Shown in pieces: positions 7,583 through 27,850 of a stretch of 64,000 nt of DNA. Under the pieces are notes generated by a model. That model worked only from the letters and a program-made list of their open reading frames with translations, made no database searches and was not told where the DNA came from. Source of the stretch: a virus (taxonomy: Duplodnaviria > Caudoviricetes); the IMG/VR virus record IMGVR_UViG_3300023714_000001. One strand, 5' to 3'. Numbering within the stretch: the first letter of the stretch is position 1; each line of letters opens with the position of its first letter. A program made the position numbers and the translations under genes.

Positions 7583-9595
7583 TTACGCGGCGAATTTTTT
7601 AACCATACCGTTCTTGTTGGCAATGATGTGTCTCCTCCTGCCGGGGAACTGTATGTACTCAAATCTCCAGTCTCCTTTTGCCTTATGGTTATAAGCTCTT
7701 TTATAAGTCTCTACCTTTAGTATCTTATGGATATGACATACTATATAGTTATTTAACTTAATCTGAGCTTTAACTGTTAAGAAGATACATGGACGAATAT
7801 CGCCGCGGACGGATACAGTCGGTTTGACTATGATATAGTCATCTTTGTATCCTGGGATAACGGTAAGCATTATGCCGCAGCCATATTTTAAGATGTCTGC
7901 TACCAGTGAATAATTTGGCTTACCTGTTTTGATGGTATAGAAACCATGTTTCTCTGCAGCCGCTTTCAGGGTTATACAGCCAGTGATATCCGGTTCACTG
8001 TTATTTGCAGGCAGATTATTATCCGTGGCAGTCAAGGCCGGCGTAGTATTTGCGTCTTTGATGGCTGTAGTAATATTGCGCCCGAGCTGGTTAATCATCT
8101 TACTGATGAGGTTTGTATTCTGGGCAGACTGTTCTACAGCTGTGCTGATTCTTGATACGAGCTCACCATTCTTATCTATGCGCTCAGTCATCATTTGTAC
8201 GAGCTGAGCCATAAGCTGCGTATTTTGTGCAGCAATCTGTGAGTTTTGCATAACCAGATGACCAAACTGCTTCATTGCCTCAGAGTTTTGTACAATGACC
8301 TGCTGTATGTCTGCCGCAACTTGCGGGGACATATACGCTCCGGTTTTGCGAATCTGTTTTAAGATTGCCTTAACCTGCTTCTTGAATTGCTTGGCGATTG
8401 GTTTGCGGGACTGCATTAAGACTTCATACAGACCGTCCTCGGTGAGGAACCATGACTCTTGCACTCCACCAGGGGTCGGAACAATCTTCCGAACCTTTTC
8501 TTCCTCCTCAACCGTATTCAACATTTTGTGTACGGAAGATCTGTCGTACTTAATCATCTCAGCCACGTCCTTGGCCAGGAACAATGGTTCTTCTGCCGTG
8601 CCATACACGGTAAAGTTTCTACCAAGCACTTCCTGCTCGGTTACAATCTGTAATTCTGCGCTCATAGGTTTAGCGCTCTCTCCCTCTGCCTCTCCTTCAG
8701 TTTTCTCTTGTGGAGTGATATTCTTTTCGGGCGGCAGCTCGTCCAGCCATTCCATATCGTCATTGCTGCCAACCACCGCACAACCGAACCAGTCGGGGAG
8801 CTTTTCTTGAACCTGTACTTTTGTATCCGGGATGACAATAGGTTTAGGAGACTCTCCCACTGCGGTGGAGTTCATGTCGTCAATCATCTTGTTGAGGCTT
8901 TCTCTAATATCCTTATCCATGCGCTCGCGATAAGTATCAGAATTAATAATCTTCTGAACGGCGTCCAGAGTCACAAGCCACTGCTTGCGTATCTTACTCT
9001 TGTTACCAAATGTCTCTATGATATTGACTTTTATCTTTTCATCGGCGCCGAGGTTTTTGGCCAGTCTGCTGCCGTCATATCCTCCCCACGAACGTTTTAC
9101 AAAATTTAGCCATGCGCATAAATCTGTGGCTTTGACCAGCAAATTTTGCATACCTGCGTCGTAGAGATGATAATTCTGTCCGCCGATTTGAAAATCTGTC
9201 AAAATTTTGACCCTTTCGCCGTGGGCGGTAAAAATTTGCTCCGGTTCTGCAGCGGGTAAATTCTGTGCCGGAATTTTGTCTTTGGATTTGCCTTTGCTAT
9301 TTTTACTCAACATCTTACACACCTCTGTCTTAATGTTGTCACGCTCTTTATCAAGAGACGCGTACGTCAGTATGGCCAGAAAACCTTTTTCTTCCATAAG
9401 GTAATGGCCTTCGGCTTTTTGGAATAATGCTCTTTCGTAAGGATCAAACTTACACAGAGCCTCAATAAACTCAAAGAGTTCTGCATGCTTGATTTTATAC
9501 AGCCTAGCTATCTCTTTGCTGGAGATAAGCTTTTTGTCTGCTACGTGGACGATGTCTATACTATCCATGACATAATCTTCCTTTCTGACTGTCAT
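7583..9595 (-). CDS. Multidomain phage antirepressor/regulator (Rha-like N-terminus plus BRO-N domains)
   Basis: ISSKEIARLYKIKH...YLMEEKGF (Rha-like); LFLAKDVAEMI...WFLTEDGLYEVLMQSRKPIAKQFKKQVKAILKQIRKTGAY (BRO-N). Confidence 0.85.
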   Translation of the reverse strand: MTVRKEDYVMDSIDIVHVADKKLISSKEIARLYKIKHAELFEFIEALCKFDPYERALFQKAEGHYLMEEKGFLAILTYASLDKERDNIKTEVCKMLSKNSKGKSKDKIPAQNLPAAEPEQIFTAHGERVKILTDFQIGGQNYHLYDAGMQNLLVKATDLCAWLNFVKRSWGGYDGSRLAKNLGADEKIKVNIIETFGNKSKIRKQWLVTLDAVQKIINSDTYRERMDKDIRESLNKMIDDMNSTAVGESPKPIVIPDTKVQVQEKLPDWFGCAVVGSNDDMEWLDELPPEKNITPQEKTEGEAEGESAKPMSAELQIVTEQEVLGRNFTVYGTAEEPLFLAKDVAEMIKYDRSSVHKMLNTVEEEEKVRKIVPTPGGVQESWFLTEDGLYEVLMQSRKPIAKQFKKQVKAILKQIRKTGAYMSPQVAADIQQVIVQNSEAMKQFGHLVMQNSQIAAQNTQLMAQLVQMMTERIDKNGELVSRISTAVEQSAQNTNLISKMINQLGRNITTAIKDANTTPALTATDNNLPANNSEPDITGCITLKAAAEKHGFYTIKTGKPNYSLVADILKYGCGIMLTVIPGYKDDYIIVKPTVSVRGDIRPCIFLTVKAQIKLNNYIVCHIHKILKVETYKRAYNHKAKGDWRFEYIQFPGRRRHIIANKNGMVKKFAA

Positions 9596-22049: not shown

Positions 22050-23918
22050 TTACTTTTCCGCATCGACAACTACAACAATGCCATCATAGCCTTCAAGATG
22101 CTCAGCAACCGGCTTAACACCAGTAGCTTCTTTTACCATCTTGTCATAACCCTTCTCGAGTTTGATACGGAGTTCATTGGTGAGCCATTCCGGTACATCG
22201 CTGGTATAAATGGTCATCAGCTTCTCACTATTAAGCGTCATCTGCATATAGTCCGTGGTTACAACTTTCGTCGTAGCCTTAACTGTATGCGGGCGGAGCT
22301 GAATCTGCATACCAACGACGTCTTTTGTGGACACTTTAGCTGCGCGGGCAGCACAAGTATCGAGCATCGTGCCTTCGCCATCCATCTGGTCATCCTTGTC
22401 AAACAGGATGCAGAAAGACTTGAGCGTAAAGCCCTGGTCAGCACGCATACCCATACCGCAAGTATGAGAAGACAGGCGGGTGGCTGCATCAACAAGCATC
22501 GTACCCGTTACCTTCTCGCCCTCACGGATGGCAAATTCACCATGAGTGGCACTATAGAAGATTTTATTGAATTTCTCAATATTCTCTTCCGTGGATGCAT
22601 CGAAGAACATCATTGTGTCCTGACGCTTCTGAGAGGTAGAATAGATATTGCATCTATCTGCATCAAGCGTCATAATTATATCTTCCTGCTTAACCCACTC
22701 TTTCTTGATGGCCACAACTTCATGCTCCTGCATGCGGTATGCCGGATCGTATCCGCTTAAGAGAGCGTAGCAATTACGCAGTTCAACGAGCACAGATACG
22801 CCATCACCATAAACAGGGACATATTCATCCTTGTCCATATCGTGGGTAACACCAATATTCTTGGTGATGTAAATCTTGCCTCCTTCCTCTAATCCATCAA
22901 TCTTTCCAAGAAGGTAACGCAAGCAACGAGCTGCCTTCTCTTGGATTTTCTTGCCGGACGTCTCATCTGCCCGAACAAGATCAGAAAAGTCAACCGTAGC
23001 TACTTTATCCGTAGCAAGACGTTCACCAGAGAACTGGTTACGGCCAATAGAGTTACCAAGAACAACACCTTTCTTGGCATACGGAGCCGTGAATGCAGTC
23101 ACTGGAGCCGCCGTAATATCGACCACGCACTGGCAGCCAATATTATTGTTGGCCTGTACAAAAGTCAGGCTCTGCATCTGTACAGTAGCCATGCCTTTAT
23201 CAGCCTTCTTCATAAGGGTTCTACGGACTTTATTGTCCAGCTTGTGGCTGCCATGTTTCAGGATAGAGCCAAGCTGAGTGCGAAGACTCGGCTTTTCAGC
23301 AGCCTGAAGGATAACAGCACGATAGTTGCCTTCAACTACCTTCTTAGAAATCCCCTTACGGCCGAGAATCTCATCCAGTTCGGACAAATCCTTAATGTCC
23401 GTCTTGTGAGCGACAATCTTGGCAGCGTATACCGCACCAATGCCGTTAAGCTTCATGAGCTCAGAGACAACACCGCAATTAATGTTGATTTCCTTCTGTT
23501 CAGAAGCTGCCGCTACTTTGAGTACAATGCCGAGCTTCTTACGCTCGACAAGGCTCATAATACGGTCACGGGAGATACCGGCTGCCACCATATCGAGCGG
23601 CGTACGGAATTTCTTTGCCTGTTTATCTTTCCAATAACGGCAAAGACGATTCACCTCACGGTGCGTAAACACCGAGCACAGAACCATCGGGCTCTGTTCA
23701 TTGATATTAACCATTGGGCGGCCAGTACGAATGTACCAGTTATGGCTGAGAACCTTCACGGATTCCCAGGAAATACCAATGTTTGCCAGTGCTTTGAACG
23801 TAGTAGCACTTACACCACGTTCACTGCAGAACGCAAAGATTTTCTCAGCGTCCTTATGGCAAATACCTGCCAGTTCCAGTTCAGAAACGGATGCAAACAG
23901 TAAATTTTCTCTAGTCAT
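22050..23918 (-). CDS. YonO/RdRP-like two-barrel RNA polymerase, N-terminal half (DPBB-B) with three ComEA-like HhH repeats
   Basis: GAGGAGG RBS at MTRENLL; ININCGVVSELMKLNGIGAVYAAKIV (HhH); YSTSQKRQDTMMFF, AATRLSS, DQMDGEGTM, QIQLRPHTVKA parallel RdRP-family SSSQLR..FF, ARLGQ, SDG.G, FQIR...KG. Confidence 0.7.
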   Translation of the reverse strand: MTRENLLFASVSELELAGICHKDAEKIFAFCSERGVSATTFKALANIGISWESVKVLSHNWYIRTGRPMVNINEQSPMVLCSVFTHREVNRLCRYWKDKQAKKFRTPLDMVAAGISRDRIMSLVERKKLGIVLKVAAASEQKEININCGVVSELMKLNGIGAVYAAKIVAHKTDIKDLSELDEILGRKGISKKVVEGNYRAVILQAAEKPSLRTQLGSILKHGSHKLDNKVRRTLMKKADKGMATVQMQSLTFVQANNNIGCQCVVDITAAPVTAFTAPYAKKGVVLGNSIGRNQFSGERLATDKVATVDFSDLVRADETSGKKIQEKAARCLRYLLGKIDGLEEGGKIYITKNIGVTHDMDKDEYVPVYGDGVSVLVELRNCYALLSGYDPAYRMQEHEVVAIKKEWVKQEDIIMTLDADRCNIYSTSQKRQDTMMFFDASTEENIEKFNKIFYSATHGEFAIREGEKVTGTMLVDAATRLSSHTCGMGMRADQGFTLKSFCILFDKDDQMDGEGTMLDTCAARAAKVSTKDVVGMQIQLRPHTVKATTKVVTTDYMQMTLNSEKLMTIYTSDVPEWLTNELRIKLEKGYDKMVKEATGVKPVAEHLEGYDGIVVVVDAEK

Positions 23919-23956
23919 GATAAAATCCTCCTCGGGCTCGACGGCCCTTTTCTCTA

Positions 23957-24012
23957 AAAAAACAAAATTTGACAGACTATTTATCGAGCGCCGCCTGTCA
24001 GGGCGCAGAAAA
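23957..24012 (-). other. Intergenic H-type pseudoknot plus U-tract
   Basis: GCGCC/GGCGC stem; loop UGACAGGC pairs with GUCUGUCA (8 bp). Confidence 0.6.
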
Positions 24013-27000
24013 TTAAAAGTCGATATCAACATCGATGGTTTCCGTGCCATCAAAGATAAGAGCAGAGGATTCCTTAACGGATTCTTCCGGCAGAGCATCA
24101 TATTCTGCATTCTTCTGTTCCACTTCTGTCAGCACAACAACGGCACGATTGCAATTGCTGTCTGCATAAACAACGGAAACTGCACCGTTCAAACCTTCAT
24201 AGAAAGAGCGAACAGTAGCATCGTAGCTGTACTGATCACGATTCTTACGGACGTATGTATCTACATCCATATCAATCGTCAGAGCCTGGCTACGAACAGC
24301 AGCCTCCTTATTGTAATGCTTGCCACCCTTGCTGCCCTTTACATAAAGGCTGCCAAGAACTTCAGTACCTTCTCTCATGCCAAGGCGGGTATACTTACCG
24401 TCCTTAACATTTGAAAGAAGAATACGATGACCAACTTTAGAAGACATGGCATCAACGATAGCTTTGTTAATAGCAACTTGCTCGTCATTAATAATCCACT
24501 GTTCTTCTGCGGTTTCACCATCCCATTCCGGATTCGGCATCCAAACAGATTTAAGGTCAAGCTCAAATGCTACCTGGGTACGATCCACTTCGGGGATGCT
24601 GATAAAGTCCGTCATTGGGCGGACAATTGCCGGGGAGTCATCACGCATAGCAATCTGATACATGCCATCCAGAACATTTAAAGACACATAAAGGTCTTCA
24701 ATTTTCTTCATTTTGGCTGTATAGACTTCGCCTTCTTTTACGATAATGTTCTGCCCCTCAGTCAGAGACTTCAGAGCTTCTACATTATTGTAACGAGCAT
24801 TAATGAACTCCACGGCTTCATTATTGTCACTCATCTGAATAGCAGCATAAGCCGTCTCCTCTTTGAGAAGCTTGCTCATATTGCTGCCTGCAGAAGTCGT
24901 GATGTCTTCGCCTCCTGCAAGATAACCAACGAGGTCGTCAGGAGAGACCTTGCTGTTATCACGAGCCACCATCCAACGAATGGTATTGGAGATAGCGTCG
25001 AAAGCATCGTCATACTTCTCGTGCAGAGCTTTGCGGATTGCATCACTCTTAGAGTTGCTGACGTCGCCATACTCATCGGCATTTGCGGCAAGCATTGCTT
25101 TGCGGTCTTCACGATAGACTGTATTGATTGCGCCACCCATGCTGATTGCTACCTGCAGGCGGTTTTCAATACGCTGGTCTGCAATGTGCATGATGGCTAC
25201 GTCGTAAGCATTTTCACGACGAGCCTTATACTCTGCAGAATTAACTGCTGCTTTGTAGCGGGCAATTAATTCATTGAGCTTTTCCATGGACTTTTCAATT
25301 GCATACCGGCGATAGCTGGCGAAGAAGTCGTTGAACACAACAACCTTACGATCGTTCTGCCCCTTTCCTTCTGCCGGCCAGAAAAGCTGAATTGGTTCTT
25401 CAGCCATTACACCGCGGAAGCCTTCACGGCTGATTTCATTGCCGTTCATGTCAAGGAGAATAACTTTTTCGTCCTTACGGAGCAGGTCATCTTCCTTGAG
25501 TTCTGTTTTAACATTAGCTTCCGGGTCTTTATGGAATGCTGCCCAGTCGATAACGAAACGCGCACCGAACTTCAGCGGCGTAACCGTCATCGTTGCCTTA
25601 AGAATGGCTACAAAGTCCGTATAAACCTTGTAGAACTTCTTTTCAGCATCTATAGTGCATTCCTGAGTGTGACGAATAAGAACGTCAAAGTCCTTGATGA
25701 TTTCGAGTAGCGTATTCCACTGCTCTTCTGTTGTACCTTCAAAGCGAGTCATATGAACCGCTTTCTCAAATGCATGATAGGCATCAAGAGTTTCGCCGTT
25801 CTCATAGGTCTTTGGAGCCGTGCTTGCGGTTTCGCGGCCGTATTCATCTTCGCCCCAAGTAAGCGGGGTATGATACTTGCCGTCGCCAGCATCAGCTTCC
25901 GTACCTGCTTCCCATACTGTAGAGAAGCAGGAGATATAGAGTGCTTTTACCTCATCACTCCAATCGATAGCACAAAGCCCCTGAATAAGGACACGGCCAG
26001 CGTTAGTCACAGGACCAACCTTCTCATTATGATTCTGGTTGATCATGTGGAAATTGGTGGAGTACATGCCACCGTCAATTTCGTAACGCTCGCCCTTTTC
26101 TTCAGGCTTAGTCGGTACGATATCAACAGCCAGCGGTTTAAAACCATACCCCATAAGGAACCAGGGGATATCCTTCTGGCCTGCACGATGCAGAATTACA
26201 GAAGTCTTATCCCCATCACGGTCCGAACCGGCCAGCACGCTGCCGATAGCTGCCAGGTCAGCAGGCATCTCGATAATACCTTCCTTGATATTGGCATACT
26301 GTTCAGCAGCGCAGATGGCCTCCTCTTCCGTGAGGTAGCCACGCTCAACGAGGTCCATCAGAGCTTCCTCGATTTCCTCGTCATCCATAAAATGAACGAG
26401 TACGGTTTCGCGGGTGCCAACAGACGGATACTTCATGAGCGCACCGTAACGATCTTCTCTGGCGGCATTGATACCGTCAAAGAAGCGAGTAGCACGAGGA
26501 TCGACAACATTCATGACGTTGCCATTGATACCCGTAACGCCAACTTTCAGTGCTTCTTCAACACCGAAACGGCTCTTAATGAGCTCATACACCGGGTCAA
26601 TCGAAATCATGCTTGTGTGGCCGTCAAGATGATAACGGTCGAGCTGAACATGATTGGAGAGCGTACGGGCGATGTCGTTTGTGGCACCCTTAATGAGCTG
26701 CGGCCACATGTTGAGCGCACCGCTGTTCATACCCATTAAGAGCGAAGAAGTATAACCAGCATCAACTTCTTCAAAGCCACGATAACCATCGCGGCAACGG
26801 CCATCGAGGTCAGACACCTCGTCCACCGTATGGTCGATAGCAGTTTTGATGACTTCATCCAGGTCGCTAAGCACCTGTTCTGCATCGGCGCCATTTTTAA
26901 TAGCGTCGTTTGCGCAGCGGAACAACTTCATCCACATCTGTGCGGATGAGTACACGTTCTTATCTTCATCCTCTGCATGAGGAATCATAAGAACATTCAT

Positions 27001-27228
27001 TCCGGTTGGTACAGTGACATCAAAGATGTCTTTCCAGAAATTACGGTCACCCACAATTTCCGGCAGTTCAATACCGTTAGCAATGGCTTTAAAAGCATTG
27101 CCTTTTACGTTAGCTGCTGCATTAACATGTATAGCTTTTTCTGCAGCTTTTGCTTTTTCTTCGGCATTGATTTTCTCAACAATAGCCTTACGATCAACGG
27201 TTACGTTTGCGATAGTCTGAGTCTTCAT
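24013..27228 (-). CDS. YonO/RdRP-like two-barrel RNA polymerase, catalytic C-terminal half (DPBB-A)
   Basis: AAAGGAGG RBS at MKTQTI; KYPS, LAGSDRDGD (DxDGD), VGPVTNA, QECTIDAEKK parallel RdRP-family KxP, SGSDLDGD, LG.I.N, AVD..K. Confidence 0.78.
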   Translation of the reverse strand: MKTQTIANVTVDRKAIVEKINAEEKAKAAEKAIHVNAAANVKGNAFKAIANGIELPEIVGDRNFWKDIFDVTVPTGMNVLMIPHAEDEDKNVYSSAQMWMKLFRCANDAIKNGADAEQVLSDLDEVIKTAIDHTVDEVSDLDGRCRDGYRGFEEVDAGYTSSLLMGMNSGALNMWPQLIKGATNDIARTLSNHVQLDRYHLDGHTSMISIDPVYELIKSRFGVEEALKVGVTGINGNVMNVVDPRATRFFDGINAAREDRYGALMKYPSVGTRETVLVHFMDDEEIEEALMDLVERGYLTEEEAICAAEQYANIKEGIIEMPADLAAIGSVLAGSDRDGDKTSVILHRAGQKDIPWFLMGYGFKPLAVDIVPTKPEEKGERYEIDGGMYSTNFHMINQNHNEKVGPVTNAGRVLIQGLCAIDWSDEVKALYISCFSTVWEAGTEADAGDGKYHTPLTWGEDEYGRETASTAPKTYENGETLDAYHAFEKAVHMTRFEGTTEEQWNTLLEIIKDFDVLIRHTQECTIDAEKKFYKVYTDFVAILKATMTVTPLKFGARFVIDWAAFHKDPEANVKTELKEDDLLRKDEKVILLDMNGNEISREGFRGVMAEEPIQLFWPAEGKGQNDRKVVVFNDFFASYRRYAIEKSMEKLNELIARYKAAVNSAEYKARRENAYDVAIMHIADQRIENRLQVAISMGGAINTVYREDRKAMLAANADEYGDVSNSKSDAIRKALHEKYDDAFDAISNTIRWMVARDNSKVSPDDLVGYLAGGEDITTSAGSNMSKLLKEETAYAAIQMSDNNEAVEFINARYNNVEALKSLTEGQNIIVKEGEVYTAKMKKIEDLYVSLNVLDGMYQIAMRDDSPAIVRPMTDFISIPEVDRTQVAFELDLKSVWMPNPEWDGETAEEQWIINDEQVAINKAIVDAMSSKVGHRILLSNVKDGKYTRLGMREGTEVLGSLYVKGSKGGKHYNKEAAVRSQALTIDMDVDTYVRKNRDQYSYDATVRSFYEGLNGAVSVVYADSNCNRAVVVLTEVEQKNAEYDALPEESVKESSALIFDGTETIDVDIDF

Positions 27229-27266
27229 GATATTTTTCCTCCTTTGTGGCTCGACGGCCACTCTGC

Positions 27267-27319
27267 AAAAAAAACAAAAATTGCCCAGTTTAAGGTCGTG
27301 TGGCAGGACCAAAACAAAA
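27267..27319 (-). other. Intergenic pseudoknot-like element plus U-tract
   Basis: GGUC/GACC stem; loop UGCC(A)CA pairs with UGGGCA. Confidence 0.45.
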
Positions 27320-27850
27320 TTAAAACGGCAAATCTCCCCATTCCGTGATGGGGTTGAGGTCAAATACTTCGGCCTCTATATTCTCATCTATATCTCTGTG
27401 GGAAACATAGGAGTCTTCCCCCATACCGTAGCAGTTATAAGCGAACTCCTTAACCTTATCTTTGGGATAAGTTTCCAGGAGCTTTACCAGGAGCATTGTG
27501 GAAATAACGTGTTCCTCCACTAAGAGGTCAGCGCCATCAACAAAGTCTGCAGCGCCAATTTCCTCCTGCATACGGCCAAACAGCTTTAGTGCCGCATCAC
27601 CCTCTGCACGCTCGGCTTCCTCCAGAAGCCCAACGGTGTTGTTGAACTCCAGAGTAACATCCTCGTCCGGCTCATCGCCGAACGGGTTGGTGAAGCAGGC
27701 CTTATCCTTGCCTACCACCAAGAACCTGCCCTTTTCATAGGCGCCCTTCCCGCCAAACATAAGTGCTCCATTCGGAAGTACTTCATAATGAGCAAATGCT
27801 TCACCAAGCAGGATAACAACAGCGGCCTTAATAAGATTCAGTTTCTTCAT
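27320..27850 (-). CDS. Acidic hypothetical protein ending -DLPF
   Basis: AAGGAG RBS; SSB-like C-terminal tip. Confidence 0.75.
   Translation of the reverse strand: MKKLNLIKAAVVILLGEAFAHYEVLPNGALMFGGKGAYEKGRFLVVGKDKACFTNPFGDEPDEDVTLEFNNTVGLLEEAERAEGDAALKLFGRMQEEIGAADFVDGADLLVEEHVISTMLLVKLLETYPKDKVKEFAYNCYGMGEDSYVSHRDIDENIEAEVFDLNPITEWGDLPF

Follow-up and report, generated by a model that had tools for sequence, protein, structure and literature searches.

Two adjacent genes, A and B, on the minus strand of a 64,000-nt stretch of viral DNA (hereafter the window; part of the 211,158-bp IMG/VR virus record IMGVR_UViG_3300023714_000001; Duplodnaviria, Caudoviricetes) probably encode a heterodimeric two-barrel RNA polymerase that descends from a single-chain ancestor, most likely serves as the phage's own transcriptase and most likely arose by tandem duplication and loss. 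The split is real, and the order of the two genes is swapped relative to the corresponding parts of the single-chain relatives. Both genes were checked as open reading frames (ORFs) and by translation:

24013-27228, minus strand: gene A, 1071 aa, AAGGAGG ahead of the ATG; catalytic (beta-prime-like) half, predicted to comprise barrel 2 with an aspartate triad, the final barrel-1 strand ahead of it, a bridge-helix/head region and a C-terminal beta-rich domain
22050-23918, minus strand: gene B, 622 aa, GAGGAGG ahead of the ATG; beta-like half, predicted to hold an N-terminal helical/helix-hairpin-helix (HhH) region, a slab-like domain and most of barrel 1

The genes lie head-to-tail with a 94-nt spacer between them, and each has its own stop, Shine-Dalgarno sequence and start.

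Gene order in split and single-chain relatives

Two near-identical proteins and a single chain of 1473 aa (P0005) were retrieved by word-based searching with A; in P0005, residues 54-535 correspond to B 134-616 (30% identity, E 1e-51) and residues 547-1458 to A 55-1052 (31% identity, E 1e-115). When B was searched exhaustively with HMMER against 1.84 billion cluster representatives, 20 long relatives (1236-2164 aa) were recovered, all 20 with the B-like part at the N terminus and the A-like part directly after it; the sole stand-alone B-like protein in that search was a 622-aa sequence (P0006, 88% identical). Later searches raised the number of single-chain relatives with the B-then-A order to about 25, by adding four fused proteins and, from a 55-kb viral contig, a 1306-aa ORF that is likewise fused. 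These agree with the original prediction, made from the sequence alone, that in related enzymes the motifs run through one polypeptide with the B-type part ahead of the A-type part.

The split form was found in relatives spanning 81-94% identity. An 87%-identity relative, present on 12 contigs (ENA, JGI, Logan), carries A (1089 aa), 94 nt, B (622 aa) and a helicase in that order, while three IMG/VR jumbo-phage contigs (147-235 kb) match at 81% identity and a shorter fourth, cut inside gene A, matches at 90%; the A-then-B order was confirmed on one of the IMG/VR contigs (L009). When the A part was placed in a quick maximum-likelihood tree, the split proteins came out as a single tight clade (support 100), and the group enclosing it, itself supported at 100%, otherwise holds six members, all of them fused and HhH-bearing. 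The split state is taken as derived because this clade nests among fused relatives and because QDE-1, RDR2 and YonO are likewise fused. Both genes are under purifying selection, with ratios of nonsynonymous to synonymous substitution rates (dN/dS) of 0.105 for A and 0.083 for B between the window and the relative L005 (dS about 0.8-1.1). No description of a split or order-swapped polymerase of the YonO or RNA-dependent RNA polymerase (RdRP) type was found in the literature.

Fold, active-site residues and assembly of A with B

The structures of A and B were predicted from alignments of the family. The A model (pLDDT, the predicted local distance difference test, 77; pTM, the predicted TM score, 0.75) was compared in an unbiased way with 48,161 PDB chains, of which just four reached a Z of at least 8, and all four are single-chain two-barrel RNA polymerases:

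ZmRDR2: Z 17.1, 441 residues aligned, root-mean-square deviation (rmsd) 5.9, covering A 82-799
QDE-1: Z 11.2 in the unbiased search (11.2-13.2 overall), A 64-799 against QDE-1 765-1334
P74-26 gp62: Z 9.2
crAss phi14:2 gp66: Z 9.0 in the unbiased search (9.0-9.3 overall)

Ranks 5-17 of the 48,161 were held by multisubunit polymerases, in each case by the largest subunit (Pol I-V; archaeal, bacterial, viral, AR9 and phiKZ enzymes), followed by isolated domains of the double-psi beta-barrel (DPBB) fold. Residues 197-365 of A match the barrel of beta-prime/Rpb1 (Z about 7) as well as isolated DPBBs (the p97 N-domain and designed DPBBs), and the similarity of A to the multisubunit enzymes is restricted to the barrel and bridge region. 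For B, a wide search placed QDE-1 first (Z 6.2, B 242-559 against chain residues 487-754) and ZmRDR2 second, and on a second look AtRDR2 aligned at Z 8.4 (195 residues, rmsd 3.4, model residues 241-589). The DPBBs on which the original prediction turned were found in both predicted models, as A 197-365 and B 242-559 match barrel-bearing chains. Among viral predicted structures (BFVD) the best match of A was A7KVB1 (1218 aa, E 7e-6), with a phage protein named RNA-dependent RNA polymerase also recovered, and Atlas look-ups with both halves led to PF05183-bearing clusters (60% of members for a language-model lead with a score of 0.93; 33% for a shape lead with a TM of 0.33). Foldseek was borderline for A (best E 1.3e-3; QDE-1 probability 0.99-1.00) and uninformative for B, so that VIA alignments were needed.

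All of the motifs that the original prediction had quoted are present in their places, in B as YSTSQKRQDTMMFF (residue 426), AATRL (478), DQMDGEG (510) and QIQLRPHTVKA (538), and in A as PEIVGDRNFWK (56), YSSAQMWMKL (93), KYPS (266), GSDRDGD (334), VGPVTN (404) and TIDAEKK (525). They exceed chance because they coincide with invariant columns of a 24-sequence family alignment (invariance being judged in 23-24 sequences). The invariant columns are R481, D513, G514, Q540, R542 and K547 in B and K66, K266, P268, D336, D338, G339, D340, N401, G405, T408, Q522, E523, I526, D527 and K530 in A, where G76 and N78 are also invariant and lie with K66 inside A 1-82. The regions concerned are as follows:

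22278-22382, minus strand: B D513 to K547, putative barrel-1 active-site residues D513-G and Q540-x-R542-x4-K547, invariant in the family
26995-27066, minus strand: A residues 55-78 (LPEIVGDRNFWKD...), strand with the invariant K66, predicted to complete the B barrel in trans
26425-26433, minus strand: A K266-Y-P268, counterpart of the R-x-P 'Pro-gate' loop, with K266 and P268 invariant
26209-26232, minus strand: A 333-340, AGSDRDGD, putative metal-binding triad D336/D338/D340, invariant; set by hhalign on YonO DNDGDK
25636-26028, minus strand: A N401-N409 (NEKVGPVTN) and Q522-K531 (QECTIDAEKK), conserved motifs past the catalytic loop with invariant columns

Eight residues are common to all two-barrel RNA polymerases according to Ruprich-Robert and Thuriaux, in QDE-1 D709, R738, K743, R962, P964, D1007, D1009 and D1011 (PMC2919709). 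All eight positions are occupied here (D513, R542 and K547 in B; K266, with lysine for arginine, P268, D336, D338 and D340 in A), the matching being based on motif and spacing without a significant alignment. The spacings in B (29 residues from D to R and five from R to K) are identical to those of D709/R738/K743 in QDE-1 (PMC2919709), and the invariant Q540-x-R542 reproduces the Q736/R738 pair of QDE-1, a Q-x-R signature specific to RNA interference (RNAi)-type RdRPs (PMC9508822). The 'Pro-gate' loop of QDE-1 is R962-x-P964 (PMC9508822). By inspection, NEKVGPVTN and TIDAEKK in A are collinear with NIGEISN and VIDYAKT of the YonO family. The DRDGD loop, which the original prediction regarded as unusual, turned out to follow the norm of the clade, DxDGD (DYDGD in QDE-1, PMC2919709; DNDGD in YonO), and its second residue varies between L, R and E within the family.

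When A was folded alone, residues 1-82 were disordered despite the invariant residues inside them. A complex of A 1-600 and B 230-622 was predicted from own alignments in three runs with three controls. The model reached an ipSAE score of 0.74 (0.74, 0.78 and 0.67 in the three runs) against 0.00 for the best of the controls, with at least 66% of contacts in common between runs and a partner pLDDT of at least 71; in a benchmark the mark used was reached by 58/80 solved complexes and 2/110 mismatched pairs, counts that are only rough here owing to the use of own alignments. In the model A 56-61 packs next to strands 500-505 and 516-519 of B (expected error below 1 Å), and the aspartate loop (A 336-339) contacts B 535-551. 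Two VIA alignments set A 64/65 on QDE-1 765/767, and K767 of QDE-1 is the barrel-1 lysine that contacts the nucleoside triphosphate (PMC9508822). The model supports a cut that would lie inside barrel 1, before its last strand, unlike the between-barrel cut of beta/beta-prime. The two-subunit composite enzyme envisaged by the original prediction was reproduced at the level of the model, in which the N-terminal strand of A completes the B barrel and the aspartate loop lies at the interface; its proposal of a cut close to where the first barrel ends, with the catalytic half placed ahead in gene order, is borne out by the single-chain relatives, the fold matches and the complex model alike.

In the mechanism that these predictions suggest, A and B would pair as a heterodimeric two-barrel RNA polymerase of the clade of QDE-1, RDR2, YonO, crAss gp66 and P23-45 gp64. 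B would contribute most of barrel 1 (D513, Q540, R542, K547), preceded by the slab-like domain and, at the N terminus, an HhH head for DNA binding; A would contribute the last barrel-1 strand with K66, barrel 2 with K266-x-P268 and the metal-binding D336/D338/D340, and the bridge-helix/head region, so that an active site would form only upon docking of the N-terminal strand of A into the B barrel.

Several results weigh against this assignment. Pfam returned nothing for A, B and six fused relatives except HHH_3 on B, and PHROGs returned nothing for the same proteins. The link to PF05183 that would be expected of the RdRP-like enzyme originally predicted did not appear, with no match at E <= 1 for A and B, at E <= 0.1 for the six fused relatives or at E <= 10 for the genome. 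Comparison by hhalign with YonO, an alignment of the YonO family and trimmed cores gave probabilities of 0.1-0.8% (E 0.07-0.4), the YonO alignment being shallow (at least 56% identity) such that a distant link may be missed, while phmmer and profile searches against PDB sequences found ComEA only and tblastn against 50,697 phage records gave no link to a known family. The polymerase assignment thus draws on predicted folds and short motifs, because no sequence method links the family to a known polymerase. The B model is of middling quality (mean pLDDT 67), with Z values of 6-8 such as unrelated models can also attain, and the score of the complex model is favoured in part by the single-chain relatives in its alignments. 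By predicted fold and motifs the family would nonetheless sit in the RdRP/YonO/crAss clade, as a member of neither PF05183 nor the YonO family.

The C-terminal beta-rich domain of A (residues about 800-1071; 24013-24828, minus strand) lies outside every structural match. It is shared in part with the fused relatives and changes faster than the core (dN/dS 0.17 vs 0.07).

The HhH head, paired leaders and origin of the split

The N-terminal region of B holds one firm DNA-binding candidate, located as follows:

23328-23489, minus strand: ComEA-like (HhH)2 unit, putative DNA-binding, B 144-197; matched by Pfam HHH_3, by an own hidden Markov model (HMM) and by the ComEA structure

Against Pfam HHH_3 (PF12836), B 141-196 scored 36.1 bits (E 7e-9; cut-off 27), the own HMM gave 55 bits for B 144-197, and ComEA (8dss_B) matched B structurally at Z 5.2. 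Three tandem ComEA-like units had been proposed, of which the one at B 144-197 stands; B 6-30 gave only a 3.9-bit half-match and B 71-140 nothing. Residues 1-141 of B are helical with low pLDDT, show weak matches to the HhH regions of Pol beta/mu and to MTERF repeats, and are under purifying selection (dN/dS 0.09). An HhH unit occurs at the equivalent N-terminal position in 9/20 single-chain relatives, and the head is accordingly older than the split, contrary to the suggestion that the non-catalytic half had gained it.

Each gene is preceded by a leader, and the two leaders resemble each other:

27229-27319, minus strand: leader of gene A, 91 nt, apparently paralogous to the A-B spacer; GGCCGTCGAGCC occupies 27248-27259
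23919-24012, minus strand: A-B spacer (leader of B), 94 nt; contains a T-run and a Shine-Dalgarno sequence; GGCCGTCGAGCC occupies 23935-23946

The leaders share a layout of TTT TAA TTTT, T-run, 12-mer and Shine-Dalgarno sequence, and their alignment score was reached by 0/2000 shuffles. The 12-mer has only two sites in the 211-kb genome, before A and before B, and is kept ahead of both genes in the 87%-identity relative. Similarity extends into the proteins, where A 27-51 and B 22-46, at a similar distance from the start, share 40% identity (E 0.002; score reached by 11/5000 shuffles). A hairpin of 4-5 bp with the loop CGUCGA can form in 3/4 copies of the shared leader; an RNA structure is not supported, the fold energies being no better than those of shuffles (z -1.5 to +1.4). 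It was also observed that at 23919-24110 and 27229-27363 (minus strand) each polymerase frame is free of stops throughout its leader and on into the 3' end of the gene before it, the register at TTT TAA being +1.

Tandem duplication with complementary loss is the most likely route to this arrangement, since it accounts for both the swapped order and the paralogous leaders: a leader and fused gene would have been duplicated in tandem, after which copy 1 would have lost its B part and copy 2 its A part. The likeness between the N-terminal peptides on which the duplication model draws is weak, and the likeness of the leaders could instead be maintained by selection for co-regulation. The leader with its 12-mer could act as a shared operator or promoter through which the subunits are made in step.

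Two other explanations of the arrangement were weighed. That A and B are read as one circularly permuted chain, through a +1 frameshift at the TTT-TAA stop of A, has in its favour the TTT TAA TTTT at both junctions and a B frame that, in the window, is open from 24110 across the spacer; it is highly improbable given that stops interrupt this frame in the 87%-identity relative, twice within the A-B spacer and three times within the A leader, that the B frame of L009 opens exactly at the 622-aa start, and that both genes have strong Shine-Dalgarno sequences. With the frames closed by stops in that relative, +1 fusion of A with B, or of the upstream gene with A, was rejected. We give equally little credence to the split being a decay product or an assembly artefact with one or both halves non-functional remnants: the identical arrangement recurs on many independent contigs, purifying selection is strong on both A and B (the B N terminus included) and every catalytic residue is kept, against which stands the restriction of the split form to one narrow clade.

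Template, genome context and known polymerases

As to function, the heterodimer is rather likely to be a phage-encoded, host-independent transcriptase acting on DNA. This is favoured because no T7-type RNA polymerase, beta-prime domain or sigma-70 region 2 was found in the 211-kb genome, because the genome encodes its own DnaE-type DNA polymerase, and because the characterised phage members of its clade are DNA-dependent and the HhH head would bind double-stranded DNA; the last two points also underlie the proposed DNA template. The HhH fold is of a type that binds double-stranded DNA. All of the characterised phage members of the clade, YonO (PMC5467207) and gp64 and gp96 (PMC10770324), are DNA-dependent. 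Rpb1 domain 2 (PF00623) was likewise not found in the genome, in a search in which all 14 controls gave a signal, and there is no second copy of the family, the family HMM matching A and B only. Scans for sigma-70 promoters and terminators around A and B remained at chance level.

A heterodimer that is mainly RNA-dependent, or that uses both templates like QDE-1 and makes double-stranded or antisense RNA (e.g., for regulation or counter-defence), is unlikely. The nearest solved structures, RDR2 and QDE-1, are RNA-dependent enzymes, the RNAi-RdRP-specific Q-x-R pair is present in B and QDE-1 works on both templates (PMC9508822), yet the characterised phage members of the clade are all DNA-dependent (PMC5467207, PMC10770324), the HhH head is of the type that binds double-stranded DNA, and no other transcriptase or sigma factor is recognisable in the phage. 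Less probable still is another kind of two-barrel nucleotide polymerase, e.g., a primase-like or PolD-like enzyme synthesising DNA for replication. PolD is described as a two-barrel core that makes DNA (PMC4996933), and A and B are set among replication-type genes (a Dda-like helicase, PhoH and a primase-like protein); however, PolD is not among the structural matches, every match with Z of at least 8 is an RNA polymerase, and the phage has a DnaE-type polymerase and a primase-like gene of its own.

The genome of the window also encodes a portal, capsid, sheath, Dda-like helicase and primase-like genes. Its DnaE-type DNA polymerase III alpha domain occurs in two pieces on the same strand about 1.3 kb apart (L014, genome 188020-188295; L015, 189576-190073), which looks like interruption by an intervening element such as an intron or intein. 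A 670-aa protein at 7583-9595 (minus strand) with an Ant-type anti-repressor domain at residues 301-465 is ordinary phage content. In the structural module, 14 kb past the window end, a 3080-aa ORF (L007:1-9243, genome 114004-123246) contains AGQNGDKDGD at residue 2480; it had no PDB or PHROG match, and an Atlas search gave a weak lead to PF05183 (rank 17, score 0.85). This protein may be a second, virion-type two-barrel polymerase, in which case A and B would be the non-virion enzyme, as in P23-45.

The top structural matches for A and B are QDE-1 (2J7N, 7Y7P-T) and plant RDR2 (7W84, 7RQS, 7ROZ), which share with them the slab-barrel 1-barrel 2-head order (with B read before A), the D...Q-x-R-x4-K spacing, the [R/K]-x-P motif and DxDGD. 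Unlike A and B, these are single chains of about 1000-1400 aa without an HhH head; A and B in turn have no detectable sequence similarity to them, carry lysine in place of the R-x-P arginine, have 68 residues between P268 and D336 where QDE-1 has 43, and appear from the model to complete the first barrel in trans. YonO of the Bacillus prophage SPbeta is, like A and B, a phage-encoded member of the clade with six collinear motifs (DG, [M/Q]xRx4K, [R/K]xP, DxDGDK, N..GxxSN/TN and IDxxK), and differs in being one chain of 839 aa without an HhH head and in belonging to a family that matches PF05183, whereas the A/B family does not. YonO is a proven DNA-dependent transcriptase of late genes (PMC5467207) and, by analogy, the likeliest functional counterpart of A and B.

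The crAss-like phi14:2 gp66 and the P23-45 gp64 / P74-26 gp62 enzymes come from the same major clade and are phage RNA polymerases that, unlike A and B, have both barrels in a single chain; gp66 is packaged in the virion within a 2180-aa protein. Phages with enzymes of the gp66/gp64 type often carry two, one in the virion and one not (PMC10770324).

The multisubunit RNA polymerases (cellular beta/beta-prime, phiKZ, AR9) resemble A and B in having barrels on separate polypeptides and a composite active site, but belong to the other major clade and match at a Z of only about 6-7, over barrel 2 only. Splits of phage RNA polymerases are common, as in phiKZ and AR9. In the multisubunit enzymes, however, beta is followed by beta-prime and each barrel is whole in its subunit, whereas in A and B the order is reversed and the cut appears to fall inside barrel 1.

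Neither Pfam nor PHROGs has this family, which would extend the clade ancestral to the eukaryotic RNAi polymerases by a phage polymerase family bearing an HhH head. Two-barrel RNA polymerases are thought to have moved between single-chain and multi-subunit forms early, and intermediates are scarce. Here fused and split versions coexist in one family, the split is clearly derived with its order reversed, and probable traces of duplication are still readable, such that subunit complementation, barrel completion in trans and co-regulation of A and B become directly testable. A fuller account, which we put forward tentatively and rate as somewhat short of probable, is that of a natural, fixed conversion to an obligate heterodimer, by way of duplication, complementary loss and an intra-barrel cut with a donated strand and catalytic lysine, that acts as a sigma-independent main transcriptase of a jumbo phage with an HhH head. 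If true, A and B would be a living model for the rise of a beta/beta-prime-type architecture from a one-chain polymerase.

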